Source: Thermoplasmata archaeon
GTDB taxonomy: Archaea > Thermoplasmatota > Thermoplasmata > GCA-020350865
Length of the DNA stretch: 64,000 nt
Reading direction: 5' to 3'
Assembly: GCA_020348445.1 (NCBI GenBank)
Contig: CP070751.1
Coordinates: 2,149,186 to 2,213,185, forward strand
Shown: in pieces, positions 3-22,386 of the stretch
Position numbering within the stretch: the stretch's first letter is position 1
Layout of the letters: the number at the start of each line of letters is the position of its first letter
Program-made: the position numbers and the translations under genes
Notes under the pieces: model-generated
Seen by the model: only the letters and a program-made list of their open reading frames with translations
The model's database searches: none
What the model was told of the DNA's origin: nothing

Positions 3-1256
3 TTTGATATCTACTACTCAGGAGGTAAATGGAAAATCGAATTTACACCCCCCAAATTGAAAACATTTACTGTGGGTGATTATTCGTTTAGGATAAAGTT
101 CGAAGATGACGAAGAGGATGAAAGTGAATGGGTAACAGTGAACAATTTAGTAACAGTCAAAAATGTAAAACCAGAGGTAACGGACCTTGAAATTTCTGAG
201 GAAGAGGGGTATCGCGGAGAGGAGATAACAATCACGGCCAATGGCCAGGATGTGGATTTTGCCCCCAGTTCTGAATCCCATTTTACAGTGGAATTTCAAT
301 ATAGAGGGCCTAAAGGAGACTGGAAAACCGATAGCACTCTTAAAGGTCTAAAATATATAAATGAGGAGTGGGAAATCACATTTGCTCCCACCTTTGACAT
401 GGATGTTGGCGATTACGATTTCCAGGTGCGGTTTTACGATGGTGATGATTGGAGCGATTGGAAGATAAAGAATAATGTTTTTGAATTGAAGAACAAGGAT
501 CCTGTGGTAACTATTCTAACCCAGGGTGGAACGCAAGATTCCTATAGAGTTGATTTCGTAGCGGATGGCTCCGACGACGAGACTCCACCCAATGAATTAG
601 TGTGGTTATGGGATTTCGGCGACGGTGACACCTCTTCCGAGCCATCTCCATCATATGAATATAAAGAATCGGGCACCTATACTGTTACTGTAACTCTGAA
701 AGATACCGACGAAGGTGAGGGCACAGCCACAATAACCATAACAATTCCAAAAGACGGAGACGACGGGGACGGAGATGGCGATGGAGACGGAGATGGCGAT
801 GGCGATGGAGACGGAGACGGTGATGGAGATGGAGACGGTGATGGTGATGGAGATCCAGGCACAGGAGCGGGTGAGGAAGGAGAGGATGACATGATGATGT
901 GGCTCCTTCTCATAATCATCATTATCGTCGTTGTTGTTCTTCTTTTGGTGTTCCTGCTCACAAGGAAAAAGAAGGCTGAGGAAGGGGTACCTCCAGCAGC
1001 ACCAATGGCACCTGCTGCCACGGGACCACCTGCTGCAGCCCCTGTCGCAGCCCCTGCTCAAGAAGTACCACAGGCCGTAGCCCCAGCTGCAGCTATTCCA
1101 GCAGCCGCCCCTGTCGCGGCTCCACCCAAAGCGGCAGCCAAGGCAGGACAGAAGATAAAATGCCCCAAGTGCGGCACGGCATTTACGGTTGAGAGCACAG
1201 AAAGACCCATTACAATAGAGTGCCCCAGCTGCCACGCAAAGGGTAAGCTAACTTAA
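3..1256 (+). CDS. 5'-truncated surface protein: Ig-like repeats, PKD domain, (DG)n linker, single TM helix, Ala/Pro-rich tail, C-terminal Zn ribbon
   Basis: Frame is open from position 3 (FDIYYSGGKWKIEFTPPKL), so the TTG at 57 is not the true start. PKD motif WDFGDG..SEPSPSYEY..SGTYTVTVT; hydrophobic MWLLLIIIIIVVVVLLLVFLL followed by RKKK; tail CPKC-x16-CPSC. Confidence 0.8.
   Translation, partial: FDIYYSGGKWKIEFTPPKLKTFTVGDYSFRIKFEDDEEDESEWVTVNNLVTVKNVKPEVTDLEISEEEGYRGEEITITANGQDVDFAPSSESHFTVEFQYRGPKGDWKTDSTLKGLKYINEEWEITFAPTFDMDVGDYDFQVRFYDGDDWSDWKIKNNVFELKNKDPVVTILTQGGTQDSYRVDFVADGSDDETPPNELVWLWDFGDGDTSSEPSPSYEYKESGTYTVTVTLKDTDEGEGTATITITIPKDGDDGDGDGDGDGDGDGDGDGDGDGDGDGDGDGDPGTGAGEEGEDDMMMWLLLIIIIIVVVVLLLVFLLTRKKKAEEGVPPAAPMAPAATGPPAAAPVAAPAQEVPQAVAPAAAIPAAAPVAAPPKAAAKAGQKIKCPKCGTAFTVESTERPITIECPSCHAKGKLT
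753..854 (+). repeat. Coding (Asp-Gly)n low-complexity repeat
   Basis: GAYGGN hexamer array encoding a long DGDGDG run between the PKD domain and the TM helix; third positions vary. Confidence 0.9.
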
Positions 1257-1332: not shown

Positions 1333-2115
1333 TTGCCGGCAATTCGCGCAGACAGGCTCAAAGAGGACAGAATGGAGAGGTCCAAGAGGATAAAGTGGCT
1401 GGACTTAGCATCCATTGGAAAATCCAAGGTTCTGGTTGTGGGTGCAGGTGCCATAGGCAACGAGGTCTGTAAGAACCTGTTGCTTTCTGGGTATCAAAAC
1501 ATCACGATCGTGGACATGGACCAAATCGAGCGCTCGAACCTGAACAGATGTCTATTCTTCTCGGATCTGGATGCAGAAAACAAACGATCGAAGGCCGAGG
1601 TCGTAGCCCAGAAACTCAAGACGCTAAATGACAGCGTGAAGGTCGCATACCACACAGAAAAAATCCAAAATCTGCCTGAGGACTTCATCCCTTCTTTTGA
1701 TTTGGTCTTCGGATGCCTCGACAATGTTGCGGCCCGACTTCATGTGAATGCGTTTTGTTATCATCACAAGGTTCCCTATATCGATGGGGCCACGGATGGT
1801 TTCATAGGAAAGGTTCAGGTTGTCATGGCTCCAAATACTCCATGCCTTGAGTGCACTATGAACAAAACACATATGAAGGTGATGGAGATGCGTTTTTCCT
1901 GCACAGGAAAAGATGTGACGTTCTTCCAACAAAAACTTCCTGCAGAGATAACCACAACGAGCATAATCGCTGCAGTGGCGGTGAGAGAAGGATTGAAGAT
2001 CTCATCTAATATCGAATCTCACTTTTCGAAGAAGATATTCTACTACAACGGCGCAAAGAACATACAAGAGGTTTTAGAAATAGAAATCAATCCCAACTGT
2101 CCGCATCATGTTTAA
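1333..2115 (+). CDS. E1-like activating enzyme (ThiF/MoeB/UBA family), E1a
   Basis: VLVVGAGAIGNE nucleotide-binding motif, D.D.IERSNLNR, GCLDN, IDGATDG, Zn site CLEC...CPHH, candidate catalytic Cys in RFSCTG. Confidence 0.9.
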   Translation: MPAIRADRLKEDRMERSKRIKWLDLASIGKSKVLVVGAGAIGNEVCKNLLLSGYQNITIVDMDQIERSNLNRCLFFSDLDAENKRSKAEVVAQKLKTLNDSVKVAYHTEKIQNLPEDFIPSFDLVFGCLDNVAARLHVNAFCYHHKVPYIDGATDGFIGKVQVVMAPNTPCLECTMNKTHMKVMEMRFSCTGKDVTFFQQKLPAEITTTSIIAAVAVREGLKISSNIESHFSKKIFYYNGAKNIQEVLEIEINPNCPHHV

Positions 2116-2121
2116 CAGGGA

Positions 2122-2874
2122 TTACAATCCAGAGAGGGCTCCTGCCAAGGCGATGGAGTTCGAATAGTCCTTTTTAGAACGGGATGTATCGATAAAGACC
2201 TTGTTGATGTTGACGATGGGGGCTCCAATTGCTTTTCCTCCGCCCATGAAGTGCAATGCCCTGAACATCAGATTTCCAGTGATTCCATCAGGAGCCACTA
2301 TGATATTGGAGGATTCAAGGGCCTCCTCGAGCTGGATTCCGAAATGTTTCGAAGAGATGCCCTTCTTGTTTGCCATTTTAGTGAGTTTCTCCCCCTGTTG
2401 GAGGGTCTTATCCACTGTTTCGTCCCTGCCCATGTCCTCGAATCTTCCCCCAGAGAGCACACCTGCCTTAGTCTCGACATTGAACTTCGAAAGAAGTTCA
2501 GATCCCAAGGATATGATTTTCAGTTTCTCTTCCAGGCTTACTCCTTCATCAACACCCACTGGCGCAAGTAGTATCAATTTCTCGTCACCCATGACCAAAA
2601 AGGCGATTCTGAGGATATTCTTAACCTCCAATCTGGATTTTACGTTGGTAAGCACGGTTTTCGCCTCTAAAGAGCCCCTGACTGCGGCATTTATTTCACC
2701 CTTTTTTAAGGCTTCCACAAGGCTAAGGGCATCGTTGTAAACTGTAACATCCGCAAAACCCTCGCGCTCTGCTGTCTTTACGCTACTTTCGACAGCAAAG
2801 CCTCCACCATCGCCTATTCCGATCTTTGCCTTATTATTCTTAGCCATTTCCTGTAATTGAGATATAGCGAACAT
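2122..2874 (-). CDS. mtxX: MtxX / methanogenesis marker protein 4 family (phosphate acyltransferase-like fold)
   Basis: Motifs AAVRGSL, LLAPVGVDEG, GVLSGGR.ED.GR, APDGITGNL.FRALHF, FIDTSR resemble the MtxX family as I recall it. Confidence 0.7.
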   Translation of the reverse strand: MFAISQLQEMAKNNKAKIGIGDGGGFAVESSVKTAEREGFADVTVYNDALSLVEALKKGEINAAVRGSLEAKTVLTNVKSRLEVKNILRIAFLVMGDEKLILLAPVGVDEGVSLEEKLKIISLGSELLSKFNVETKAGVLSGGRFEDMGRDETVDKTLQQGEKLTKMANKKGISSKHFGIQLEEALESSNIIVAPDGITGNLMFRALHFMGGGKAIGAPIVNINKVFIDTSRSKKDYSNSIALAGALSGL

Positions 2875-2973
2875 GACCTCACCTTTATGATTGATATCGG
2901 TTGACGAAACTCCCCCAATACCATGTCAACTGCTGGGTTTGTACCGTTGCGTTAATATTTATTTATTTCGGGT

Positions 2974-3429
2974 TCATTGGGCAAAATCAGCACTGTTTTG
3001 GTACTCCTCAGATGGATAATAGGCACCAGACAAGCCACAGAAGGGGCAAATGACGTCTGTAAAATAAGATTCACTCACAAAAAAGATACAGTTACATCTT
3101 GGACATATTATATCCTCTCCAAGATAATATGAACGTGTATAATCCAATATTTGATCATTTTGCTCAATTATATACATACTCGGCTTCACAGTCTTTTTCC
3201 AGTCGAAAAAGGAGAAGGCTGTTGTAAACAAAAAGAGTGGAAGGAGAATGAATAAAAGAAGTATCATCTCGATTTGTGCCTCACCGTATTTATTGATATT
3301 GATTATGGCAGAATAGTGGTTGTTTGAATACGCACAAACAAAGAGCCAAACCATGAGCAGAAAAATCCCCAGCATCAGAGAATCCCCAAACAATCTTATC
3401 ATCTTGATGGTGCAGACAGTTTTTGGCAA
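2974..3429 (-). CDS. 2-TM membrane protein with C-terminal Zn ribbon (paralog of 7462..7935)
   Basis: Two hydrophobic helices around NIN.YGEA..EMI; tail CPRC-x15-CPFCGLSG; start could be the ATG at 3402. Confidence 0.75.
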   Translation of the reverse strand: MPKTVCTIKMIRLFGDSLMLGIFLLMVWLFVCAYSNNHYSAIININKYGEAQIEMILLLFILLPLFLFTTAFSFFDWKKTVKPSMYIIEQNDQILDYTRSYYLGEDIICPRCNCIFFVSESYFTDVICPFCGLSGAYYPSEEYQNSADFAQ

Positions 3430-3643
3430 GGCTTCACTCCCAATTATTCTGACTCAGAAATATATATGGCCATGGAATATTTTAGAATTGTTGGTTTACA
3501 AGTAAACCTTTTTAAAAATAAATAAATACATTGTGATTTTAAAAAAGGCCTCCCCCCCACCAATACCCCCTCCTCCCACCCTATATTAAAATATGGATTT
3601 AGAAATGAAGTATATTCATTAGTTGGTATTCAACACGTCATAT

Positions 3644-4612
3644 CTACTGGATCTTTACATCCTTTCTTATTTCTTTACCGCATACAAAACAGGAGTCATT
3701 TCTTTCAAGGGGCAGAACCGAGTAATTATTATTCAGAAAATCCATCAAAAGTACGCCTTTTAAAGTGGGCAGCCCACATACGATCTTCATTGCCTCGTTG
3801 GCCTGCACGCCACCCACTATTGAGGCTACACTTGAAAACGATGCTACAGCCCCAACATCGTACCCATCACAGGGATTTGAAAGCTCCATGATCTCGGCGT
3901 ACCGATCCAAGGGTATGGTGCATGCAAGACAAGCTCCATCTGGCAAATATGTCTGGACTCTGCCCTGAAACTCAGAAATCCCACCATCCACCAGTGGAGT
4001 GGAATTTTTTACACAGAAAGATGCAAGCCAGACCCTTGCCGGCATGTTGTCCAGGCCACTTAAAATCACATCAGCATTCAGTTTTTGCTCATCACATTCC
4101 TCGATCCTTTTTGGAATCGATTCAATTTTTGTATAAGGACTGTTTTCTTTTATCTTCTTTGCCAGAACCTCAGCCTTGTTCCTTCCAACATCCTCCTTCT
4201 TAAACAGGCTCCTGCTCACATTTGAGAGCTCCACAGTGTCGTAATCCACGATTTTTATGGTTCCGAATCCAAGATAGGCAAGGTTCTTTACTATCTCGTT
4301 TCCAAGAGCTCCGGCCCCCACAACCAAAGCATTGGCTTTCCTCAGCTTTTTCTGCCTATCTCCAAGTGAGATCATCTGCCTTGCCCAAATATAATCTACG
4401 ATGACCTCGTATGAAGGTTTGATATCTTCCTCAAAAGACGCTTCCTCCTCATCCTTCTTTACAAATATCAGGTTCGTTAGTTCGGGCTCGATTTCTAATT
4501 TACTGCAGATCTTATTCTTTAGTTCCTCCTCATCCTCATATTCAACTTCAAAAGATGAAACTGAAGGCAAAACAACTTTTACCCTCTTCTTACTTCTATC
4601 ACCGTGGGACAT
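3644..4612 (-). CDS. E1-like activating enzyme with N-terminal ubiquitin-like (beta-grasp) domain, E1b
   Basis: ARQ, LVVGAGALGNE, DYD.VELSNVSR, GLDN, LVDGG, Zn site CLAC...CFVC, candidate catalytic Cys in SNPCDG. About 70 extra N-terminal residues (KVVLP..SFEVE...LKNKICSKLEIEPELTNLIF) resemble the ubiquitin helix/strand pattern. Confidence 0.88.
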   Translation of the reverse strand: MSHGDRSKKRVKVVLPSVSSFEVEYEDEEELKNKICSKLEIEPELTNLIFVKKDEEEASFEEDIKPSYEVIVDYIWARQMISLGDRQKKLRKANALVVGAGALGNEIVKNLAYLGFGTIKIVDYDTVELSNVSRSLFKKEDVGRNKAEVLAKKIKENSPYTKIESIPKRIEECDEQKLNADVILSGLDNMPARVWLASFCVKNSTPLVDGGISEFQGRVQTYLPDGACLACTIPLDRYAEIMELSNPCDGYDVGAVASFSSVASIVGGVQANEAMKIVCGLPTLKGVLLMDFLNNNYSVLPLERNDSCFVCGKEIRKDVKIQ

Positions 4613-4651
4613 GAAAGCCCTCTATATACATAAATCGATTGTTGAATATAA

Positions 4652-4903
4652 TTATTCGTCTTTTCCGCCAACGATGTCCAAGGGCATGATGGCAAGCTGA
4701 GAGTTCTCCACGATACCAAGTTCCTCTACAGTCCTGTTTTCATCCAAAACCTCGCCGCCGTACATAAGGGCCACCGCTGCGCTGTTTATGCCAAATGCCC
4801 TACATACCTCCCTTTTCACCATATTGATGGTGTGTCTTGGATCCACATCGATTTCAGCAAGGCCGGCCTCTTCGCCAATGGGTGCTTGTACCATTACCTT
4901 CAT
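4652..4903 (-). CDS. Ubiquitin-like protein precursor (mature end G79-G80, KDE pro-peptide)
   Basis: Aligns by eye to ubiquitin (DVDPRHTINMVK ~ EVEPSDTIENVK; LMYGGEVLDENRTVEELGI ~ LIFAGKQLEDGRTLSDYNI). The DNA reads ATC GTT GGC GGA AAA GAC GAA TAA. Confidence 0.9.
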   Translation of the reverse strand: MKVMVQAPIGEEAGLAEIDVDPRHTINMVKREVCRAFGINSAAVALMYGGEVLDENRTVEELGIVENSQLAIMPLDIVGGKDE

Positions 4904-4941
4904 ATCTTTTATCCCCCTATTTTCTTGTATTTCTTTAACAT

Positions 4942-6228
4942 CTATCCACCATGGGATACATTTACCGTGATTGCAACCTCGGCAATATATAGATTCCTAT
5001 CTTCAGCCCTTATTTTTATTTGATAGGTGCCGTTTGTAAGTAATTCTGTATCAAAGTAAGTGAGGTAAACGAGCTGATCATAATGGGTTTCGTTTACATG
5101 GGTCCAATCAACACTCCCGTTCCGAAAGAAAAACTGCACTTCATGAACATTATTCTCCACATCTGCAACCACTGCATAAACAGGGATGACACCGTCGATT
5201 TCATCACCATCGCGGGGTTCTAAAAATCTCGGCTCTGGTATATCTGGAGTATTATCTATAACGAACAGTTCCGACATCCCTTCAAAAGTCCTTCCCTTGG
5301 TATCTGTGAAGTTCACTTTGATATGATAGGTACCCTCATTGTGTAACCTTGTGTCAAATGCGAGGTGGTAACTGTTTTCAGAATAAGTGCCAACATTTCC
5401 AAGGTAATTCCATCCCAGACTAGTCTGACCCAAATAGAACCTCAATCCTTCGGCGGTAATCCTCCCGTCTAAGACAGTAATATTCGCAAAAACATTCATT
5501 TGATCCCTGAAAATCGGTGTTCCCAGTTGGTTTTTATACAACTCTCCGAAAAGCAGGACGTCATCCACACTTGAATGCTTCGAATTCTCATTTTGGTTTT
5601 TCGGGACAAACGGGCCTCCTATGAGCATGCTCAAAAGTACAGCAATGGTTACAAAGGCTATGATTTTTCTATATGAATTCTTTGGCTCTTCTCGCAAGGG
5701 TTTGACCTCCCCCTCATTATCTTCCGTTTGAAAAGTGGGCTTTGGTGGTTTGGGAGGAGACGAGAAAGAATCAGGAATCTTCTCCTTTTCATCGGAAAAA
5801 ACATGCACCTGGTCATCTTCGAGTTGGATCACATTTTCGTTTTTGTCAAGTGTAAAAAATGCCAATTCCTCCTTCTTGGGATCCACTATCAAGGCCGTTA
5901 CATAGTCTGAGAACTGCTGAAAGTTCCTTTGGGTGATGATATCGATTGGAGACATGAACAAACCAAAACCTGGATGGGAATGGTACCAACCCATTATCCT
6001 TCCCTGAATCTCCCCGGATAGTATCCTGTCTGTTATTTCTGCTATGCTTTTGGGATGCAACGAGGCCATTGTGGATTGCGAATCCTGCTCCCCGGTAATG
6101 GCCTCCTCAATTAAAATTGTATGATTCTCAGCATATCCTACGAGGAGTCCTATTATCTCGAAATCAGTGGCCTTGGCCTTCTCCATAATACTGTCAAGAA
6201 CCTTTTTCGGGATGCTGACATAAAACAT
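4942..6228 (-). CDS. Membrane-anchored Rpn11-like JAB/MPN+ (JAMM) isopeptidase with extracellular Ig-like domains
   Basis: FEIIGLLVG (catalytic Glu) and GWYHSHPGFGLFMSPIDIITQ (JAMM motif, about 5930-5990); TM IIAFVTIAVLLSMLIGGPF preceded by YRK; C-terminal Ig repeat FDT.LLTNGTYQIKIRAED. Confidence 0.88.
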   Translation of the reverse strand: MFYVSIPKKVLDSIMEKAKATDFEIIGLLVGYAENHTILIEEAITGEQDSQSTMASLHPKSIAEITDRILSGEIQGRIMGWYHSHPGFGLFMSPIDIITQRNFQQFSDYVTALIVDPKKEELAFFTLDKNENVIQLEDDQVHVFSDEKEKIPDSFSSPPKPPKPTFQTEDNEGEVKPLREEPKNSYRKIIAFVTIAVLLSMLIGGPFVPKNQNENSKHSSVDDVLLFGELYKNQLGTPIFRDQMNVFANITVLDGRITAEGLRFYLGQTSLGWNYLGNVGTYSENSYHLAFDTRLHNEGTYHIKVNFTDTKGRTFEGMSELFVIDNTPDIPEPRFLEPRDGDEIDGVIPVYAVVADVENNVHEVQFFFRNGSVDWTHVNETHYDQLVYLTYFDTELLTNGTYQIKIRAEDRNLYIAEVAITVNVSHGG

Positions 6229-6424
6229 ATGAACACATCTTTGCGACTACAATCTCTTCTAAAGCTTTACCTCAATAAATAGTTTTTTCCTGGCTTTCTG
6301 AGAATAATGAACTATCCCCTCCTCTGCACCCCTCCTCCCACCCTACGGCTATGTCATTAACAGTCAGTATCTTAAGCCTAGGGGCTCCCAATAACCCCAC
6401 CAACCTTATATCCCCTCCACCCCC

Positions 6425-6568
6425 CCCAAGAACAATATTTGTAGGTACGAATGCCTATCTATAGGGAAGATTCCCTCCACCGCTCCCCTCCGCCCACCCA
6501 AGAACAATATTTGTAGGTACGAATACTCCTTTATAGGGAAGATTCCTTCCACCACTCCCCTCCGCCCA
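6425..6568. repeat. 72-bp tandem direct repeat, 2 copies (6425-6496, 6497-6568)
   Basis: Manual alignment gives 65/72 identity, with the first 28 nt (cccaagaacaatatttgtaggtacgaat) identical. Confidence 0.9.
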
Positions 6569-6652
6569 CCCTATTCTGGTAATATGTTAGAAAAAAAGTT
6601 CTTTAAAATTGATAACCTCGATCCTCTCATCTATTCTCAATCACCCATGGGT

Positions 6653-7342
6653 CTATCCGCGTTTTATGGGAAATCCGAACATCCTGCAGATCTTGGCAAC
6701 CTCCTGGCATTTTTTTGTCTTGTAGGCGCTGTAAGGATTTGGGTCAGAGAGAAGGAAATAGAGGGCATTTATCACGGCTGCCAGTTTGGTGTTGGGTAGC
6801 CACTTCTTGCCTAGAATACTAACGCAGACCTTCCCTTTTTTGTGGGCAATGATATTGGGATGGGAAATATCTGTCAGCCATGTCACAGATGGAGGCTTGT
6901 AGGGATGTAGGTAAGACAGGGTCATTTTGAACTCATGCCATTTCACATACTCGACAAAGGGCCAGACACCCCTGTCGGCAAGATCCTTGACATAACCTCT
7001 TTCACATCTCAGCTTTCCGGTGTAAGTCATGAGATCCACCATTTTCACAAGGGGGAACTGGGTTCTCAGATAGTTGTACTCCTCGATCAACTCAGCCTCG
7101 TCTATTGCGGCAAAAATTCCAAGGGGCATAAGCCCCAGAACATCCGAATCTCCCATCTTCAGGTCACCTAGGGTAACCTCTTCAGAAATGACATTACCAT
7201 GCTGTACAAAACAAAGGTTTTTACTCTTAAGATTCATTGAGTTGCAAATATAATGCTTGAGCTTCCATAATGGGCAAGATGGTTTTATGTCCAAAGCTAT
7301 GGAAAACCCGTCACCTATTGGTGCGTAAACTACAAGCTGCAT
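6653..7342 (-). CDS. Ubl-E2 fusion: N-terminal ubiquitin-like domain plus ubiquitin-conjugating (UBC) domain
   Basis: UBC signature HPYKPPSVTWLTDISHPNI...GKVCVSIL...W.P...VINALYFLLSDPNP with the active-site Cys codon at 6824-6826. The N-terminus MQLVVYAPIG...MPLGIFAA parallels the free Ubl MKVMVQAPIG...MPLDIVGG. Confidence 0.9.
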   Translation of the reverse strand: MQLVVYAPIGDGFSIALDIKPSCPLWKLKHYICNSMNLKSKNLCFVQHGNVISEEVTLGDLKMGDSDVLGLMPLGIFAAIDEAELIEEYNYLRTQFPLVKMVDLMTYTGKLRCERGYVKDLADRGVWPFVEYVKWHEFKMTLSYLHPYKPPSVTWLTDISHPNIIAHKKGKVCVSILGKKWLPNTKLAAVINALYFLLSDPNPYSAYKTKKCQEVAKICRMFGFPIKRG

Positions 7343-7377
7343 TACAACTCACTTTCGGGCATTTTGTACGAAAGCCT

Positions 7378-7394
7378 GCATATTTATATATTTC
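7378..7394 (-). promoter_or_regulatory. Putative BRE/TATA promoter of the Ubl-E2 gene
   Basis: Minus strand reads GAAATATATAAATA about 40 nt upstream of the ATG at 7342. Confidence 0.45.
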
Positions 7395-7461
7395 GCAGTC
7401 TGTTAATCAATCTGGTAGCTTACAAATATTAGTAAAAAGATCGAGCAAGCAGGCCCGGTTA

Positions 7462-7935
7462 TCATCGCCTGATGTTCCTTATGATCCTTACACTTGGTCT
7501 TGCCTCATCTTGGGAATGGGTCCCTGTCAAACCGCAATTCGGACAGGTTATAAGCCCGTTTGAACACGTTAAATTCGAATCAAATATGAATTGACATCTG
7601 GGACATACTGCAACTTTCTCTTGGAGGAATTGATAGGTGGTTGGGGTGTCAATCAGCAAATACTTATGGGACATAATCTTTCCCTTGGCCTTCCATGTCT
7701 GCCTCCAATCCATAAAGGATAATGCAACCGTGAGCATGAACAAAGGTAATAGAAAGAAAACCAGGACTATCATCTCGACATGGGCCTCGCCGTAGTTGTT
7801 GATATTTACAGTTGTGCGGTAATCATTGGAGAGATAAGCCGATAAAAACAGCCAAATCAACATAAGAAAAGAACCGAGCATTAAAAAATCCCCGACCAGT
7901 CTTAGACGTTTCATCTTATCGATTTTGCCTGCCAT
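7462..7935 (-). CDS. 2-TM membrane protein with C-terminal Zn ribbon (paralog of 2974..3429)
   Basis: RLVGDFLMLG..L...WLF..AY..N.Y....NIN.YGEAHVEMI shared with the paralog; tail CPRC-x16-CPNCGLTG. Confidence 0.75.
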   Translation of the reverse strand: MAGKIDKMKRLRLVGDFLMLGSFLMLIWLFLSAYLSNDYRTTVNINNYGEAHVEMIVLVFFLLPLFMLTVALSFMDWRQTWKAKGKIMSHKYLLIDTPTTYQFLQEKVAVCPRCQFIFDSNLTCSNGLITCPNCGLTGTHSQDEARPSVRIIRNIRR

Positions 7936-8160: not shown

Positions 8161-9180
8161 ATGGGAGTTAATATATCTGATATAGTTCCAAAAAAGAAAA
8201 GAAGTCTATCTGATTTTGCGGGCAAGTGGGTGGCAATCGACGCCTACAATACCCTTTATCAGTTCCTTTCGATAATAAGGCAGCCTGACGGCACACCCCT
8301 TTCGGACTCCAAGGGAAGATGCACATCCCATCTTGCGGGTTTACTGTACAGAACCACCAATCTCATGGAAATGGGTGTGAAGCCGGTTTATGTTTTCGAC
8401 GGGAAGCCCCATGAGCTTAAAAGTGACACCCTAGAAGAAAGAAGATCTGCAAAGGAACAGGCCAAGAAGGAGTGGGAGCAGGCATTGGCAGAAGGCGACC
8501 TGGAGAGGGCAAAATCCAAGGCCCAAAGAACCTCAGTGCTAACCCAGGAAATGGTGGATGCTTCAAAGGAGCTATTGGGATACCTGGGAATCCCATGCGT
8601 CCAATCACCTAGTGATGGTGAGGCTCAAGCAAGCTACATGGCGAGCAAAGGACACGTTTGGGCAGCTGCATCACAAGATTTTGATTCACTGCTTTTCGGT
8701 GCCCCCACACTTATTAGAAATCTCACAATAACAGGTAAGCGAAAACTTCCCAAGCGAAGGGAGTATGTAAATGTGGAGATTGAAGAGGTAAGATTGGACG
8801 AAGCCTTGGATACCTTAGAGATAACAAGAGAGCAGCTTGTGGACATCGCGATTTTAATCGGAACTGACTTCAACGAGGGAATAAAGGGAATTGGTCCCAA
8901 AAAGGCATTAAAACTGATAAAGAAACATAAGGATCTTGAATCCGTGATGACTGAAAAGGAACTTGAGATCGAGGACTTCCAGGAGATAAGAAACATTTTT
9001 TTATCTCCAGATGTTACAGATGATTATAAAATATCCCTGGGAAAAATCCAAAATGAGAAGGTTGCGCAAATACTTGTTAATGAATATGAATTCTCTGAGA
9101 GCAGGGTGAAAAGCGCCCTAGATAAGGTTATATCTGCAAGAAGCGATGAGGTGCAAAAAAGTTTGGATGAATGGTCATAG
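8161..9180 (+). CDS. fen: Flap endonuclease 1
   Basis: MGV.I..., AIDAYNTLYQFLSIIRQPDGTPL, VFDG, DGEAQA, SQDFDSLLFG, H3TH GTDFN.GIKGIGPKKAL, C-terminal PIP box QKSLDEW. Confidence 0.97.
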   Translation: MGVNISDIVPKKKRSLSDFAGKWVAIDAYNTLYQFLSIIRQPDGTPLSDSKGRCTSHLAGLLYRTTNLMEMGVKPVYVFDGKPHELKSDTLEERRSAKEQAKKEWEQALAEGDLERAKSKAQRTSVLTQEMVDASKELLGYLGIPCVQSPSDGEAQASYMASKGHVWAAASQDFDSLLFGAPTLIRNLTITGKRKLPKRREYVNVEIEEVRLDEALDTLEITREQLVDIAILIGTDFNEGIKGIGPKKALKLIKKHKDLESVMTEKELEIEDFQEIRNIFLSPDVTDDYKISLGKIQNEKVAQILVNEYEFSESRVKSALDKVISARSDEVQKSLDEWS

Positions 9181-16434: not shown

Positions 16435-16827
16435 CTAGGGTTTTCCCGCACCTTGAGTTTTTCTTAACCGAAGACGCTTACCTGCAGGAAAGAACAACCC
16501 AAGTAAAAAAAGGATCAACATACAAGGCATTATGACAAAGAGGGTGAGGATGGTAATGGCAGATGGTAAATTACCACCGATGCTCCTAAGTGCAGCCTGA
16601 ATCGCGATAATAAATATGAACATCGTGATTAGGGTCATTAACACATAGAGGGTTTCCTGAAAGGAGTACCGCCAATCCTCTTTTCCCCTGGGGTATCTCA
16701 ATCCAAGGTAAATGAGCCCAAAAAATATTATTATGCACAGGGCCCACCATAAAGGAACGCCCAGCCAAAGCAACATAACGAAGCCCCCGAGTAAGAGAAA
16801 CAGAAGCATCCAATCCAGATCATTCAC
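16435..16827 (-). CDS. Small multi-TM membrane protein
   Basis: About 4 hydrophobic helices; the start overlaps the AAA gene stop by 8 nt. Confidence 0.65.
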   Translation of the reverse strand: MNDLDWMLLFLLLGGFVMLLWLGVPLWWALCIIIFFGLIYLGLRYPRGKEDWRYSFQETLYVLMTLITMFIFIIAIQAALRSIGGNLPSAITILTLFVIMPCMLILFLLGLFFPAGKRLRLRKTQGAGKP

Positions 16828-19800
16828 CTCTATGCTCTTTGATGAAATTACTTAACCGTTTTTGTAAAACTACCTTTTTACCGTATGGTTTTAAGCCATG
16901 GCTCTTGCACTCGTTCTCCAGCTGGGATATTGTCATAATAGCTATGTCCTCGTCCGTGAGCATCACCGAGGGTGGAGGGGGGGGAGGAGGTGCGGGAGTT
17001 TGCGGGGGCCTCTCAAGGGGTTTTTGTACATTGGGGGCCTGTGGGGGAGGAGCTTGTAAGGGTGTTTGTGGCAAAGGAGGTAGGGGGACGGATTTCAATT
17101 CGGCTTTCTTGATATTTTCCTCCCATTCAATAACCGAGGGCTTGACCTTCTTTAATGCACTCTGTAGATGGGACATTTTAATGCCCAGAGGCTTTTTCTT
17201 GGATTTTTCGGGTCCAGAAAATATATCCTCTCCGCTTAAAGCCAAAAGCTTTGCTTCCTCCACAACTGCAAAAACATCCTCGCCACTGAAGCCCTCTGTT
17301 GCCTTTGCAAGGGTCTCAAAATCTATCTTGCCTATTTTCGGAACATCTTTCAGATTCATCTCAAAAATCTTCTTTCTAACAGAGATATCAGGGGGTGGTA
17401 CAAATATCTTTTTATCGAATCTTCCTCTCTTAAAAAGCGATGGATCCAGGGCATCGGGATTCTCGGACGCCCCAACAACCACAATAATATCGTTGGGCTG
17501 GATGTTATCCAACATTGACATGAATATGGACAATGCTTTTTTACCTTCATCAGTCTCAAGGTTTTGTTGCGATGCAATGGCCTCTAAATCAGAGATGAGC
17601 AAGATCGCAGGAGCCATGTCTCGAAGCGAGGACCAAAGACCTTTGATTGCCAATGTGCCTTCGGCATTTATGGCGTTTAGAAGCTCACTTCCCGTTATTT
17701 CTGAAAGGGGAATGCTATATTGATTTGAAATTGCCTTCATTAGATAGCTCTTACCGCAGCCAGGGGGGCTGTGAAGAAGAATCGCCCTGCCTGTTTTCAA
17801 CTTGAACTTCTCCACGAGCTTCCTTTTTGTTAAGGGCATAACCACCGATTCCCTAAGCTGTTTCTTGATATCTGTAAGACCAGCAACCTTATCAAGTGTT
17901 ACAATGGCCTTTTTTTCTCCCCTTACTACATCATGAACCTTTCTTTCGTAGCGCATTTTTATCCTTTCGTACTCCTCTTTCATGGTTAGTGATATGCTGG
18001 GCTTGATTCTGGGCAAAATATCAAGAAAATCCTTATGGGTTATGGTTGTAAGCTGCTTGGTTTTCATGGAGCGGCGCATGGCATTTGTTGCTCCTTCCTT
18101 TACTAAATTGGCCATGTCAGCTCCTGAAAATCCCTCTGTCCTCTTTGACAAGGTATTTAGGTTTATGTTCTCGGCAAGAGGTTTTCCAGCTAGATGCACC
18201 TTCAATATATCTATTCTTTCTTTATAATCTGGAGGAGGGACATAGATTATCTTATCGAACCTACCGGGACGAAGCAACGCGGGATCTATTAATTCTGGTT
18301 TGTTTGTGGAGCCCACGATTATTATACCTGTTGCCTTATCCATACCGTCCAGCTCGGAGAGCATAATGGACAGCAGCCTGGGCGTAACATCATCTGCAGA
18401 GTAAAGGTCCCTGCGTTTTGCTACTGCATCGATTTCATCAAAGAATATGATGGCCGGTTTTCTTTCCTTTGCAGTCTTAAACAGGGTCATCATCCTTGTT
18501 TCGCTCTCGCCGTACCACTTGGACATCAGATCCCCGCATTTAACAGTGAACATTTCCACGTTAAGTTCCGTGGCAAGGGCCTTCATAGTAAGTGTCTTTC
18601 CACACCCTGGGGCTCCAAAAAGAAGTATACCCTTTGCAGGCTCCACTCCGAATTGTTCGGCAATATCGGGTCTTAGTAGGGGAACTAGCACGCTTTCTTT
18701 TATGTCCATTTTCACATCTTCCAATCCCCCCACCTGATCGAATGTGGTCTTTCCCAAATCAGCCATTTCACTGACCCTGGCACCCACTGTACTTGCCCCC
18801 ACCTTGCTTGTGAAGTACTCCCTGAACATCTCCCTAACTACAAAGCTCGTAACAACTGTTGTGTAAATTGCACAACCTGCACCGATAAATATTAGTGTGG
18901 TTCCCATCATAACCAGCATTTCAGTTGAATTGAGGTAGCCAAACCAGTAAATTGCGGCAAAGGAAGAAAGTACTATGGTGCAGATGGAAAACATTGTAAC
19001 CTCCCTGAATTTCCAGCTTGTAAAAGGATAGGCCAGCCATTCGGTCAATTTTGTGAAGCTCAGACGCTTTTTCGAATCAATGAGGTAGGATAGCAAAAAT
19101 ATACCGAAACACCAGGCTGCGAGAACGAAGAACGGAAGCATGGATGTTGCAAAACCCTCTGCAAGAACCGAGCCTATTATATCACTTTCTGCAAGTCCTA
19201 CATCCCACATGACACTTGCTAAGGTGCCTGGGGTAAAGTTGGAGACCACGGGTTTTGAGAAAATCATGAAAGCTGTTGGGTGATCAGCTCCAGCCATAAG
19301 ACCCATCACATGATAATTGCTGGCACTAACCAGTAGAATTAGAAATACACCTGCGCACATGGAAACCGCTATTGCCAGGAATGTGGAAAAGACCATGATC
19401 GTGAATACAGGGACGATGAAGGGTACGCCGAATTTGGATAGGAAAATCATGAGAAAAACCAGATACCCGAACTTCCAATCGTAGAACGAGCAGAGCATTA
19501 CAACGAGGCTGAATACCAGAAACACCAGGCCGAACTCAGGGCTTTGATAGGCAGCGGATCCTGTAATAAACAGGCTTAACAAAAGCAGTGCTGAATATGG
19601 GAATTTATACGCAACCACGGCAACGAACAAGGAAATGATCAGAATCACCCACCAGGGATAAAATGGAATAAAAACCGCACCAAAAACGCCGAGCATGAAA
19701 AAGGCTATGGGAGTTATGATCCTGGGATGCTTTGTTTCCTTGGTAAATATGTCCCAAAACTTGGTTCTTAGGCCTTGGTTTTCCTCTTCGTTACCCTTAC

Positions 19801-20980
19801 CAAAGGTTTTTTTCTTCTCTGTAAGCTCAAGCAGCCTCTTTCGCTGTTTCTTATAGAACACCCAACAAAATGCAAGAGGAATGAACAGGGCACCTATAAT
19901 TCCCGCATAATCGTACCAATTGGGAAATCCCACAAACTCCCGCACCGGCTCAGCTTTTGCCTTGAAGGAGAATGTTATCTGGTTGTTGTTTTCATACGGA
20001 ATTGTAATCTCCCTTGTCTGCGTTCTCGAGTCATATTCCACCTCTATCACATAATCCCCAACATGGAACATTTCGGGAGCCATAAGGAGGCCCTTGGCGT
20101 TGGTCAGACCCGTATATACTATGCCTGTATCGTTCATTATTGTGACTGAGGCCCCAGATGCAGGTTGTTGGTATTGATCCAACACCTCGATTACCATGTC
20201 ATAGATGTAGATTGTATTGGACGGACCCACGGAATATCGATATATAGGGGAGGTAATTGAAGAATAATACTGATCGAACGCCGTTATATTAAATGATACA
20301 TTGGAGTCCCCCTCATACCCAAGGATTGTAGCGTTCATCAACGTTTGGCTTATGGAATTGAATGATGCATGACCATTCCGAGTTGCTCTTCCTGGAGTTT
20401 CGATTTCCCATGAAATCGTGGCGCTTGTTATGGGGACATCAGAGGATATGGATTGGATTCTGATTCCCACACTCTGATAGGGATTGGGATTCTCAGGCTC
20501 CATGTTCACAATGATATTTTCTTCAAAGGTGCCCCCGCTCCAGGAACCGTTTCTAGCCACTTCATATGAAAACTCTTGGGAGTATATTGGGACGTTTATC
20601 TCGTCATAAGCTACAGTATAGAAGTTTACAGATGTGTCGCCTGTATTTTGATAACCTGGTATTAAACAGTACATCTTAGTTTGGGCAGAATTCGCGTATT
20701 CAAAAGTGTATCCTCCCTGGGTTACGACACCATCTCTTGTGAAGTTGCAGAATAAATATGCGGAGTTGATCTGTTGGGAGGTGCTAGTAGAGGTTATGGT
20801 TACATTCACAGGTTCGAGATTATGGGGACTTGTAGGTGTAAAACTCAAAGCTAGGTTGTCGTTAAACTCCGTGCCCTGCCACATTCCCAGAACACTAAAT
20901 GAACATACAAGAATCACAGTCAATTGTGCAAGTACTGAGGTTATCACGATATTTTTCAATTTCATATTGATCTGAACCAC
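16820..20980 (-). CDS. Polytopic membrane protein fused to tandem Cdc48/VAT-like AAA+ domains; C-terminal Pro-rich linker and SAP-like domain
   Basis: Signal peptide, about 320 aa extracellular beta-rich region, many TM helices. D1: GAPGCGKT, KWYGESE, IFFDEID, DPALLRPGRFD. D2: SPPGCGKS, LISDLE, RGRFDK. Tail MTISQLENECKSHGLKPYGKKVVLQKRL. Confidence 0.88.
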   Translation of the reverse strand: MVQINMKLKNIVITSVLAQLTVILVCSFSVLGMWQGTEFNDNLALSFTPTSPHNLEPVNVTITSTSTSQQINSAYLFCNFTRDGVVTQGGYTFEYANSAQTKMYCLIPGYQNTGDTSVNFYTVAYDEINVPIYSQEFSYEVARNGSWSGGTFEENIIVNMEPENPNPYQSVGIRIQSISSDVPITSATISWEIETPGRATRNGHASFNSISQTLMNATILGYEGDSNVSFNITAFDQYYSSITSPIYRYSVGPSNTIYIYDMVIEVLDQYQQPASGASVTIMNDTGIVYTGLTNAKGLLMAPEMFHVGDYVIEVEYDSRTQTREITIPYENNNQITFSFKAKAEPVREFVGFPNWYDYAGIIGALFIPLAFCWVFYKKQRKRLLELTEKKKTFGKGNEEENQGLRTKFWDIFTKETKHPRIITPIAFFMLGVFGAVFIPFYPWWVILIISLFVAVVAYKFPYSALLLLSLFITGSAAYQSPEFGLVFLVFSLVVMLCSFYDWKFGYLVFLMIFLSKFGVPFIVPVFTIMVFSTFLAIAVSMCAGVFLILLVSASNYHVMGLMAGADHPTAFMIFSKPVVSNFTPGTLASVMWDVGLAESDIIGSVLAEGFATSMLPFFVLAAWCFGIFLLSYLIDSKKRLSFTKLTEWLAYPFTSWKFREVTMFSICTIVLSSFAAIYWFGYLNSTEMLVMMGTTLIFIGAGCAIYTTVVTSFVVREMFREYFTSKVGASTVGARVSEMADLGKTTFDQVGGLEDVKMDIKESVLVPLLRPDIAEQFGVEPAKGILLFGAPGCGKTLTMKALATELNVEMFTVKCGDLMSKWYGESETRMMTLFKTAKERKPAIIFFDEIDAVAKRRDLYSADDVTPRLLSIMLSELDGMDKATGIIIVGSTNKPELIDPALLRPGRFDKIIYVPPPDYKERIDILKVHLAGKPLAENINLNTLSKRTEGFSGADMANLVKEGATNAMRRSMKTKQLTTITHKDFLDILPRIKPSISLTMKEEYERIKMRYERKVHDVVRGEKKAIVTLDKVAGLTDIKKQLRESVVMPLTKRKLVEKFKLKTGRAILLHSPPGCGKSYLMKAISNQYSIPLSEITGSELLNAINAEGTLAIKGLWSSLRDMAPAILLISDLEAIASQQNLETDEGKKALSIFMSMLDNIQPNDIIVVVGASENPDALDPSLFKRGRFDKKIFVPPPDISVRKKIFEMNLKDVPKIGKIDFETLAKATEGFSGEDVFAVVEEAKLLALSGEDIFSGPEKSKKKPLGIKMSHLQSALKKVKPSVIEWEENIKKAELKSVPLPPLPQTPLQAPPPQAPNVQKPLERPPQTPAPPPPPPPSVMLTDEDIAIMTISQLENECKSHGLKPYGKKVVLQKRLSNFIKEHRGE

Positions 20981-22386
20981 CTTTTACTGGCTTTGCGCGC
21001 CTCCATTTCCGCCTTGACACTGGCCAGTCTATTAGCAATACCAACCCTCACCCCAAGACTTTTTACCTTGCTCACCTCCCTCAAACTCATGGCTGCAAAA
21101 GGTGCGAACAATGCCTGCCAACCTGCTGGCTGCCCAACCTGACTCAGGCTTACCTGGGTCATCATGCCTGCCGATACAGGAGGAGCTGGCATTGGGAAAA
21201 ATTCTAAGGGAGGAGGAGGAACGGCTGGAGGAGGTGGCGGTGGGGGCGGAGGGGGAGGGGGAACAGGAGGAGGCAGAACCACATAAATTCTCACATCAGG
21301 AAACGGAATAAAATCCTCCTGATAGTCCCAAGTTGTATAATGGATTCCTGCTGTGGGGTACACCCCGATTTGCACTTCCCCGCGCTGTGTCGTAGCAATT
21401 TCATATGAAACCTGCCAGGATTCAGAAAGAAGCATTCTACTTATGTTCCAAACGAAGGTTGTTATTCCATTTGGATTGTATTTTATTTGCATGCTGGTAT
21501 TTGAGAATGAACCTGGAACATATTCAATATGTGAGGGTAGAATATCAATTACTTCAATATCTCTTCCTGCAATCCTTGTCAAAAAGCGTCCTGAGATGGT
21601 CTCGTAGATTTGAAAGAGATCTTGGGCCTCTGATGCAGAAAAATACTCACCCTGGGTTTCATTTGCGATCCATCGAAGCAGATCAGAGTCCTGATCCGAG
21701 CCCAGACCAACGGTATATATCATTATATTTGAATCTTTTACAAATTGCATTGTTTCAAATGTAACATTACCGTTTTCGGGGTGTCCAGGAGCATCCGGCT
21801 TTCCATCTGTAAGCAAGATCATAAGTAGAGTTTTATGTGGATCGCCATATTCTATCAGTTCTAAGGCAGATAGATTTATAGCCTCGTCGATATTTGTTCC
21901 GGCACCTGATGTGATTATGGCCAGGTTCTTCTTTATCCCTGTATAATCTCCAGATAGATGCCCCGCATAATCGGTAACTAAAGTGGCATTGGATGCAAAA
22001 TTCACAACTGCTGCCCTGTCAGGAGCCATCATCTTGTCCACAAAATTCTGGGTGGCCTCTACCCTCAGATAGGTGGGGTCGCTTTCGCCCATGGAGCCAG
22101 AGGAGTCCATTACAAAAACAACATCAATTGCAGCGGCAGGATCACCTTTGGCATTGACCTTTATGGTAACGATTGCCTCATTGGGCTCGTTTTCGCTTTG
22201 TGCGGGCCATATAGAATCAGGCTCTGCCGATTTCTCAACTTCGAGGAATGGATGCGCTTTGGCAGGTGTGGCAAGAAGAAAACACATTAATAAAAAAAAA
22301 CAAACAACACACAGCACTGTAGCAATTAGAAAATGTCGTGAAGTTCCTGCAAATCCACTGTTCGTGCTGTATACTGAGTTCTGCAT
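20962..22386 (-). CDS. Secreted von Willebrand factor A domain protein with DUF11-like domain and poly-Pro stretch
   Basis: Signal peptide ending AKA; MIDAS DVVFVMDSSGS, GTNI, LLTDG; IYTVGLG; PPPVPPPPPPP. Confidence 0.85.
   Translation of the reverse strand: MQNSVYSTNSGFAGTSRHFLIATVLCVVCFFLLMCFLLATPAKAHPFLEVEKSAEPDSIWPAQSENEPNEAIVTIKVNAKGDPAAAIDVVFVMDSSGSMGESDPTYLRVEATQNFVDKMMAPDRAAVVNFASNATLVTDYAGHLSGDYTGIKKNLAIITSGAGTNIDEAINLSALELIEYGDPHKTLLMILLTDGKPDAPGHPENGNVTFETMQFVKDSNIMIYTVGLGSDQDSDLLRWIANETQGEYFSASEAQDLFQIYETISGRFLTRIAGRDIEVIDILPSHIEYVPGSFSNTSMQIKYNPNGITTFVWNISRMLLSESWQVSYEIATTQRGEVQIGVYPTAGIHYTTWDYQEDFIPFPDVRIYVVLPPPVPPPPPPPPPPPPAVPPPPLEFFPMPAPPVSAGMMTQVSLSQVGQPAGWQALFAPFAAMSLREVSKVKSLGVRVGIANRLASVKAEMEARKASKRWFRSI

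Follow-up and report, generated by a model that had tools for sequence, protein, structure and literature searches.

A candidate membrane-associated ubiquitin-like conjugation locus with zinc-ribbon partners in a Thermoplasmata archaeon

Among the archaea, eukaryote-like ubiquitin cascades have mostly been discussed for Aigarchaeota and Asgard. The operon of Caldiarchaeum subterraneum encodes a ubiquitin, an E2-like and an E1-like protein and a small RING finger protein, with an adjacent homologue of Rpn11, and the operons of Asgard archaea are related to it (PMC3082918, PMC5654768, PMC6043591). In Caldiarchaeum, the processing of the pro-ubiquitin by Rpn11 has been demonstrated experimentally (PMC5654768). 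As for other archaea, a ‘Ca. Thermoplasmatota E2’ clade lies at the base of the archaeal E2s (bioRxiv 10.1101/2023.07.25.550441), and RING and UCH genes have been recorded in a marine group II euryarchaeote (PMC4327156). Here we describe a locus for a ubiquitin-like protein (Ubl) in a stretch of 64,000 nucleotides (the window; contig CP070751.1, positions 2,149,186 to 2,213,185) from an uncultured Thermoplasmata archaeon, whose genome is a single 5.16-Mb contig. The locus brings together a Ubl precursor, two E1s, an E2, an Rpn11-like JAMM protease and two small membrane proteins with a zinc ribbon, and would correspond, with a probability that we put at roughly 0.6, to a resident, eukaryote-type cascade of Ubl conjugation and deconjugation at the cytoplasmic face of the membrane.

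An earlier note on this DNA had listed five components, namely a Ubl, two E1s, a Ubl-E2 fusion and a JAMM protease, all of which are recovered by open reading frame (ORF) calls and Pfam searches at the positions given below. What that list overlooked is a pair of paralogous zinc-ribbon (ZnR) genes, whose products have two transmembrane (TM) segments each (2974-3429 and 7462-7935). The genes of the system are:

1333-2115, plus strand: E1a, a ubiquitin-type E1 adenylation domain of 260 aa (Pfam ThiF 2.6e-54).
2974-3429, minus strand: TM-ZnR-A, 151 aa, with TM segments 13-31 and 56-74 and a cytoplasmic C-terminal Cys4 ribbon, CPRC109...CPFC128.
3644-4612, minus strand: E1b, an E1 of 322 aa (Pfam ThiF 4.7e-54).
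4652-4903, minus strand: Ubl precursor, 83 aa (PF00240 7.3e-9; Rad60-SLD 3.7e-8).
4942-6228, minus strand: Rpn11-like protease with JAMM, TM and immunoglobulin (Ig)-like parts, JAMM-TM-Ig (PF01398 1.1e-10; Big_7 3.3e-7).
6653-7342, minus strand: Ubl-E2 fusion, 229 aa (UQ_con, PF00179, 1e-16; weak PF00240 match on residues 11-72).
7462-7935, minus strand: TM-ZnR-B, 157 aa, the first gene of the minus-strand cluster, with TM segments 13-31 and 56-74 and ribbon CPRC111...CPNC131.

By ORF calls, the minus strand of window positions 2122-7935 holds seven genes, towards which a single plus-strand gene, E1a, converges. Read in the direction of minus-strand transcription, they are TM-ZnR-B, Ubl-E2, a 424-bp spacer, JAMM-TM-Ig, Ubl, E1b, a 214-bp spacer, TM-ZnR-A and an MtxX/Mmp4-like gene. 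The gaps between the JAMM and Ubl genes and between the Ubl and E1b genes measure 38 and 39 bp, exactly the tight spacing that had been claimed for them. The domains and their catalytic residues, the TM segments, this conserved gene order and the recurrent linkage of zinc ribbon and E2, by fusion or within operons, can be seen in the sequences themselves.

The earlier description of a ubiquitin-like protein with a masked GG holds, since the precursor matches PF00240 and ends in ...IVGG-KDE, where the Gly-Gly pair at residues 79-80 is capped by KDE. The Caldiarchaeum ubiquitin (2mqj) matches it across its full length (9.5e-5). The last Arg or Lys ahead of the GG is Arg57, so that trypsin would leave a branch of 23 residues (TVEE...DIVGG), for which the usual anti-diGly enrichment is unsuitable. 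Among homologues, the end ...MPLDI(V/I)GG is conserved and followed by tails that vary between species (KDE, TSA, NCVY, AD or none), and a conserved GG with variable tails is the pattern expected of a pro-peptide cut by the neighbouring protease, for which Caldiarchaeum offers the precedent (PMC5654768). In that protease, a proline/charged linker joins the JAMM domain (residues 1 to ~130) to a TM helix (189-207), beyond which lies an Ig-like ectodomain of ~220 aa. Its E...HxH...S..D motif is intact, as reported before, and the catalytic residues E24, H83, H85, S93 and D96 are kept in all the relatives aligned. The best match in the PDB is the Rpn11 homologue of Caldiarchaeum (6fjv, 7.5e-17), followed by Rpn11 and CSN5 (~1e-12), and the desampylase model of NCBIfam gives the protein 27 bits against a cut-off of 130. 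The TM helix, as predicted from hydropathy, is conserved within the genus (loci L001, L010, L014 and L015), in line with the proposal of a membrane-tethered deubiquitinase; distant JAMMs lack it.

The E2 of the locus had been described as a UBC-fold protein with HPN and an active Cys, and this description can be maintained. Its UBC core (residues ~82-229) contains KPP149-151, HPN161-163 and Cys173, all of them invariant in E2 alignments of 16 and 32 sequences. The best PDB match is UBE2L3 (5.6e-11), with Rad6-type E2s also at ~1e-10, and the E2 match is not background because the PF00179 profile finds nothing in any of 14 control prokaryote genomes. Upstream of the core, the N-terminal domain (residues 1 to ~79) matches the free Ubl over its whole length (29% identity, BLASTP E 4e-12) and has Ala-Ala at the position of the Gly-Gly of the free Ubl; some distant Ubl-E2-ZnR fusions retain GG there. 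In an AlphaFold2 (AF2) model of Ubl-E2 (predicted local distance difference test, pLDDT, 78) the N-terminal domain is a clean beta-grasp (Z 11-12 against ubiquitin and SUMO), and the rest follows a UBC-like order of helices and strands, with the active-site loop 166-183 below 50. Fold searches with this model were filled by ubiquitin and SUMO matches to the N-terminal domain, not to the E2 core, so that for the core the predicted fold has the support of sequence and of the modelled secondary-structure order only.

The motifs of both E1s are intact, as the earlier note had said. They comprise the nucleotide loop, the Arg finger, Zn-binding CxxC pairs and a Cys at the catalytic position. E1a has GxGxxG at 37, Arg72, CLEC171, the crossover-loop Cys190 and a C-terminal CPHH. 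E1b is built of an N-terminal extension of ~55 residues, an acidic linker and the adenylation domain, with GAGALG99 as GxGxxG, Arg134, LDNMPAR187, two CxxC pairs (CLAC228 and CFVC308) and, in the crossover loop, Cys248, the equivalent of Cys190 in E1a; these motifs, Cys248 included, are kept in 12/12 relatives. In the PDB, E1a best matches UBA1 (6e-30) and SAE2 (2e-28), against 5e-16 for MoeB, and E1b best matches the active adenylation domain of UBA1 (6e-27), with ThiF at 1e-23. For all five core proteins, the nearest solved relatives are thus ubiquitin-pathway proteins of eukaryotes or Caldiarchaeum, and not sulfur-carrier enzymes. The claim that both an E1 and the E2 bear Ubl domains is sound for the E2, through the alignment and modelled beta-grasp mentioned above, and weak for E1b: its N-terminal extension reaches a probability of 72% against the Ubl profile in hhalign over 24 columns, resembles only the Ubl helix and the next strand, and is at best a partial beta-grasp that we do not count as a Ubl domain.

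The two E1s are not equivalent. Orthologues of E1a (43-64% identity over the full length) occur in 86/401 Thermoplasmatota genomes, and an E2 accompanies them in 85 of these 86 genomes, against 11 of the 315 without E1a. In two complete genomes of class-level relatives (L027 and L028), E1a heads a compact E1-Ubl-E2-JAMM operon. E1b, on the other hand, was found at E<=1e-45 in 2/401 genomes, that is, in one besides this genome. E1a is therefore the common ubiquitin-type E1 of the phylum, and E1b belongs, with this E2 family, the Ubl and the TM-ZnR proteins, to a rare system. With an E2 in 96 of the 401 sampled genomes, the presence of an E2-bearing system as such is hardly exceptional in this archaeal phylum, and its novelty had been overstated. 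We considered whether E1a could be a housekeeping MoeB/UbaA and rejected it: the UBA1-type match is better than that to MoeB by 14 orders of magnitude, the co-occurrence with E2 points elsewhere, and the genome has a better ThiF/MoeB candidate (2.8e-74, at 2,604,521). An obligate E1a/E1b heterodimer was also judged unlikely, since the cassette of sister metagenome-assembled genomes (MAGs) has E1b alone and the distant operons have one E1.

The surroundings of the locus include the following elements:

57..1256, plus strand: PKD-domain surface protein, a context gene (Pfam PKD_4 3.7e-15).
2122..2874, minus strand: MtxX/Mmp4-like protein with a phosphotransacetylase-like fold (TIGR03270 1.1e-61, above the family cut-off).
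6229..6652, no strand: intergenic spacer between Ubl-E2 and JAMM, 424 bp, peculiar to this genome (81 bp at the same junction in L001).
8161-9180: fen1, divergent from TM-ZnR-B.

Two Joint Genome Institute contigs (L001 and L002, E2 67% identical) keep the gene order described above all the way from fen1 to E1a and the giant PKD protein and have an orthologue of TM-ZnR-A at the same position, and synteny is retained in relatives with E2s 67-72% identical. The PKD protein adjoins E1a in all the close relatives (L001, L002, L007, L008 and L009). Around the locus lie genes of housekeeping type (fen1, GNAT, LonB-like AAA, primase Toprim), and the annotated neighbours include no mobility gene. Because the whole arrangement recurs beside fen1 in independent assemblies of related Thermoplasmata, the locus is resident and no chimera, as the earlier note had supposed when it weighed a chimeric assembly as a risk; its assignment to a Thermoplasmata host stands too, every named relative being a Thermoplasmata MAG.

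In three MAGs of the genus, the parts are divided between two loci. Type A comprises fen1 / TM-ZnR, Ubl-E2, MtxX / E1a, PKD protein, and type B comprises JAMM-TM-Ig, Ubl, a short E2 and E1b. In a tree of E2 cores, the Ubl-E2 fusions form one clade (support 100/97) and the short cassette E2s another (100/99). A profile search of the window genome found no short E2 or second E2 of the family, and the 424-bp and 214-bp spacers contain neither a decayed short E2 nor the remnant of a third zinc-ribbon gene. Here and in one sister lineage, then, a type B cassette minus its short E2 sits inside type A. As the cassette has, on this reading, lost its own short E2, we argue that the Ubl-E2 would serve the free Ubl.

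The most distinctive components are the TM-ZnR proteins. TM-ZnR-A and TM-ZnR-B are paralogues (44% identical, E 2e-41), and their two TM helices are predicted from hydropathy; basic residues on both flanks of the TM hairpin place the Cys4 ribbon in the cytoplasm. Neither has a Pfam match at E<=0.01 despite a Cys4 pattern, CPxC-x(16-20)-CPxC, as in ribbons of the MJ0042 type (PF13717/PF13719), and TM-ZnR-B has a single match among PDB sequences, which is not significant (E 0.4). The family is tiny, with 9 representative clusters at E<1e-10 among 1.84 billion. Full-length members occur in 4/401 Thermoplasmatota genomes, all four with an E2, and in two (G008 and G138) of the three such genomes other than this one the gene adjoins the E2. 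In more distant relatives the E2 itself ends in a Cys4 ribbon of this pattern (P0050-P0058, P0063 and P0064), as in one Ubl-E2-ZnR fusion modelled with AF2 (P0050, pLDDT 84.5). Distant operons repeat the association: JAMM, Ubl, E2-ZnR, E1 and a small Zn/B-box protein in UBA280, E2-ZnR, E1, TM-ZnR and JAMM in L006, and Ubl, E2, E1, TM-ZnR and JAMM in L012 and L013. Every version of the locus examined has a ribbon either on the E2 or on a membrane protein; only the type-B cassettes (L010, L014, L015) depart from this, and there the genome has a TM-ZnR at the type-A locus. We interpret the zinc ribbon as a core E2 partner, in the slot that the small RING protein has in Caldiarchaeum. No ORF of 1333-7935 matches RING, U-box or HECT, so the earlier statement that there is no RING gene is right for the locus; it needs the qualification that the two conserved TM-ZnR genes fill the accessory slot and that a RING/RWD protein is encoded in a second operon 410 kb away.

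Several side observations concern the ribbons. The PqiA/YebS model TIGR00155 matches TM-ZnR-B weakly (4.8e-5, 22.6 bits against a cut-off of 260) and TM-ZnR-A at 3e-3, and an Atlas search with TM-ZnR-B gave no score >=0.9 and, as structural neighbour, a PqiA cluster (TM 0.41); the hairpin-plus-ribbon module may be remotely related to PqiA/LetA, which we mention as a lead only. P0050 (L005:7106-7903), P0055 and L011 have Ubl, E2 and ZnR in a single chain, with GG at the Ubl/E2 junction and no separate Ubl or JAMM gene nearby, and chains of the P0050 type may be self-contained precursors that are cut to release the Ubl. A custom ribbon hidden Markov model (HMM) unites the TM-ZnR ribbons with the tail of the PKD protein at 57..1256, which has a single TM helix (283-301) and a C-terminal cytoplasmic zinc ribbon, CPKC369...CPSC389 (1.9e-8 with the custom model; weak Zn_ribbon_4 match, PF13717 4.5e-5, below the cut-off). 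By the same model, ~30 or more membrane proteins of the genome, the PKD protein included, end in a cytoplasmic Cys4 ribbon like that of TM-ZnR; many of them, at 900-3900 aa, are giant surface proteins that combine a signal sequence with one C-terminal TM segment, and some have two or three tandem ribbons. A link of the large surface-protein neighbours to the operons L003, L005 and L006 was dropped, as the weak matches to the PKD protein exclude the zinc ribbon.

The way in which these parts would work together is inferred, and this applies to each biochemical step as well as to the transfer direction, the ribbon's role and the targets. The JAMM domain of the tethered protease would cut the KDE cap from the 83-aa Ubl and expose Gly80. 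An E1 would then adenylate the Ubl and take it onto the Cys of its crossover loop; E1b, with Cys248, would be the cassette's own E1, and E1a a second possible entry point. The Ubl would next be handed to Cys173 of Ubl-E2, and the pair of two-TM zinc-ribbon proteins could retain or guide the charged E2 at the membrane, be it as a receptor, an E3-like adaptor or the first substrate. Lysines of membrane-proximal targets would thus be modified, and the same JAMM could finally remove the tag. The earlier idea of a full, membrane-directed cascade is borne out as far as the parts are concerned, the list for conjugation and deconjugation being complete; how it functions is deduced from sequence.

A bolder version of this cascade, which we regard as speculative and rather doubtful, would make the TM-ZnR proteins a class of non-RING membrane E2 receptors, or E3-like factors, that tag the cytoplasmic ribbon tails of the many giant surface proteins, with the JAMM ectodomain linking the tagging to events outside the cell; at least 30 proteins of this genome have such tails, the PKD protein next to E1a among them. 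If true, it would be an archaeal counterpart, outside Asgard, of the ubiquitin-controlled turnover of membrane proteins known from endoplasmic reticulum-associated degradation (ERAD) and endocytic sorting.

A number of points weigh against a membrane-directed cascade. Its support is sequence-based; neither Pfam nor the PDB offers an informative match for the TM-ZnR proteins; and there is no RING, HECT or U-box at the locus, while we know of no E3 activity established for a Cys4 zinc ribbon. The active-site loop of the E2 is modelled at low confidence, and the Ubl domain on the E2 is devoid of GG. E1a may be a mere syntenic neighbour, as it stands alone in L029, L030 and L032 and its usual operon partners are of another E2 subfamily (E 7e-11 to the window E2). 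The 424- and 214-bp spacers divide the cluster into several probable transcription units, a species of the genus (G401) lacks TM-ZnR and this type of E2, which makes the system dispensable, and the 35,300 N in the assembly mean that the absence of any other E2 is not absolute. A rival reading is a genuine Ubl cascade acting on soluble targets, which might for instance feed the proteasome or Cdc48 as in Caldiarchaeum or in SAMPylation; the membrane parts would then be secondary, the TM-ZnR proteins being regulators or mere neighbours and the JAMM anchor serving only to localise recycling. The distant JAMMs of L003, L006 and L013 do lack a TM helix, L003, L005 and L011 have no TM-ZnR, and the common E1-Ubl-E2-JAMM operon of Thermoplasmatota is wholly soluble. 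However, the ribbon is not incidental, because the versions without TM-ZnR carry it on the E2, except L010, L014 and L015, which have TM-ZnR at a second locus. Moreover, 3/7 proteins of the cluster are membrane proteins with cytoplasmic active domains, and TM-ZnR is found only alongside E2, adjacent to it in two of the three other genomes of the phylum sample that have TM-ZnR. We consider soluble targets a possible outcome, albeit an unlikely one.

Two other functions have to be weighed against Ubl conjugation at the membrane. The component set of E1, E2, Ubl and JAMM equals that of BilABCD (PMC10557695), and an antiviral defence of the Bil kind, or of the kind of type II cyclic-oligonucleotide-based antiphage signalling systems (CBASS), would place the Ubl on virus proteins, with the membrane parts sensing or blocking infection. 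The E1s and the JAMM give weak PADLOC matches to CBASS E1-E2 and JAB models, the presence of the system varies within the genus, and a weak gene of the AbiEi type with a winged helix-turn-helix lies beyond fen1. Against this, PADLOC has no match for the E2, the Ubl or either TM-ZnR, the E1 matches reflect the generic adenylation domain only, the syntenic neighbours are housekeeping genes, no mobility or other defence genes were seen, and the closest solved relatives come from Caldiarchaeum and eukaryotes, all of which renders defence improbable. Still more improbable is a non-conjugating sulfur-carrier pathway of the ThiS/MoaD type, akin to SAMP/UbaA, in which the Ubl would be thiocarboxylated for the thiolation of a cofactor or of tRNA. 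Both E1s score on the ThiF/MoeB/UbaA models of NCBIfam and have a short crossover loop, as in MoeB and ThiF, but none of these scores comes close to its curated cut-off (for the UbaA model NF047750, 89 and 117 bits where 450 are required). Pfam finds no rhodanese domain, the Ubl matches PF00240 rather than ThiS/MoaD, the better ThiF/MoeB candidate lies at 2,604,521, as said, and sulfur transfer needs neither a UBC-fold E2 with HPN and Cys nor a pro-peptide after GG.

The non-coding parts of the locus have features of their own. Within the 424-bp spacer, Tandem Repeats Finder detects a 72-bp tandem repeat at 6411-6571 (2.2 copies, 88% match), and three copies of the G-rich 15-mer GGGTGGGNGGAGGGG are found there on the coding strand. 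The locus has four copies in all (window 3567, 6329, 6485 and 6557, G-rich on the minus strand) and the genome 19, against ~0.006 expected, every one outside long ORFs and usually with a T-rich run before and GT..TGGAKGG after. Candidate explanations for the 15-mer are a G-quadruplex, a small repeat element and a regulator site. Scans of the locus with Rfam and for tRNAs gave no match.

Other genes nearby are worth recording. The MtxX (methanogenesis marker 4) homologue at 2122-2874 is the sole copy in the genome, where no McrA was found; in three sister MAGs (L007-L009) it trails Ubl-E2 by just 4-22 bp and is a conserved neighbour. Beyond a set of housekeeping genes, some 9 kb from the Ubl locus, lies the gene for a 1386-aa protein (16820-20980) in which a large N-terminal part is accompanied by two AAA modules (PF00004 9.6e-65, AAA_lid_3); a VWA-domain protein (20962-22386) comes next.

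The genome as a whole holds five ThiF genes and two JAMMs. A second ubiquitin operon lies ~410 kb away on the minus strand (L026, G000:C1:2559000-2569000; genes L026:2969-8387) and encodes a Ubl ending in GG-WIFQ, an E1 of 440 aa with an insertion in the crossover region, an E2 of 178 aa (UQ_con 2.6e-22), a JAMM of 401 aa that ends in a zinc ribbon and a protein of 694 aa that weakly matches RING_2 and RWD. A third system, at G000:C1:4170827-4172064, has a UFC1-like E2 (PF08694 1.8e-9, above the cut-off) directly beside an E1 of the ThiF family. As judged from their predicted products, there are three E2-based systems in this one genome, and several distinct ones across the Thermoplasmatota.

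How does the locus compare, in the end, with the systems already described? With those of Caldiarchaeum and Asgard it shares a modifier precursor with GG plus a tail, a compact E1 of MoeB size, a UBC-fold E2 with HPN and Cys, an Rpn11-like JAMM and the clustering of the genes. It differs from them in its Thermoplasmata host, in having two E1s and two two-TM zinc-ribbon proteins instead of a RING, in the TM helix and Ig-like ectodomain of its JAMM and in the N-terminal Ubl domain, without GG, of its E2. The common but uncharacterised Thermoplasmatota operon of L027 and L028, whose E2 clade is the one mentioned in bioRxiv 10.1101/2023.07.25.550441, has the same four functions, and its E1 is the orthologue of E1a (~50% identity). 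That operon, however, is compact, soluble and co-directional, and its E2 and Ubl are distant from those of the window (E 7e-11 and 4e-4), whose Ubl, E2 family, E1b and TM-ZnR constitute a separate and rare system.

Like BilABCD, the Cap2/Cap3 of type II CBASS and Bub, the locus clusters E1, E2 and Ubl with a JAB peptidase that matures and removes the Ubl, an activity that is predicted here; unlike them, it has no PADLOC match for the E2 and the Ubl, a housekeeping context, sequences of eukaryotic and Caldiarchaeum kind and membrane components. The Haloferax SAMP/UbaA/HvJAMM1 system, also archaeal, likewise brings together a beta-grasp modifier bearing GG at its C-terminus, a ThiF-family E1 and a JAMM, its desampylase, and it has no E2; the present locus is set apart from it by its UBC-fold E2, by a Ubl of the ubiquitin family and by scores far below the cut-offs of the UbaA and desampylase models. 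Our literature searches returned nothing on a membrane-tethered Rpn11-like protease, TM-zinc-ribbon partners, E2-zinc-ribbon fusions or this architecture. Such a case would be that of one rare Thermoplasmatota system that moved to the membrane, with a zinc ribbon where a RING is expected. If the ribbon proteins recruit or activate the E2, substrates could be chosen independently of a RING, and ubiquitin-type control of membrane proteins would have a precedent among prokaryotes; as its components are small and can be separated, the cascade is amenable to study in vitro. In eukaryotes, the membrane-recruited E2 modules of ERAD are Cue1-Ubc7 and the tail-anchored Ubc6. The role that we propose for TM-ZnR would resemble the Cue1 module, in which a small membrane protein holds an E2 at the cytoplasmic face; as the two are unrelated in sequence and TM-ZnR has a Cys4 ribbon and not CUE/U7BR, the analogy is one of topology and gene linkage only.

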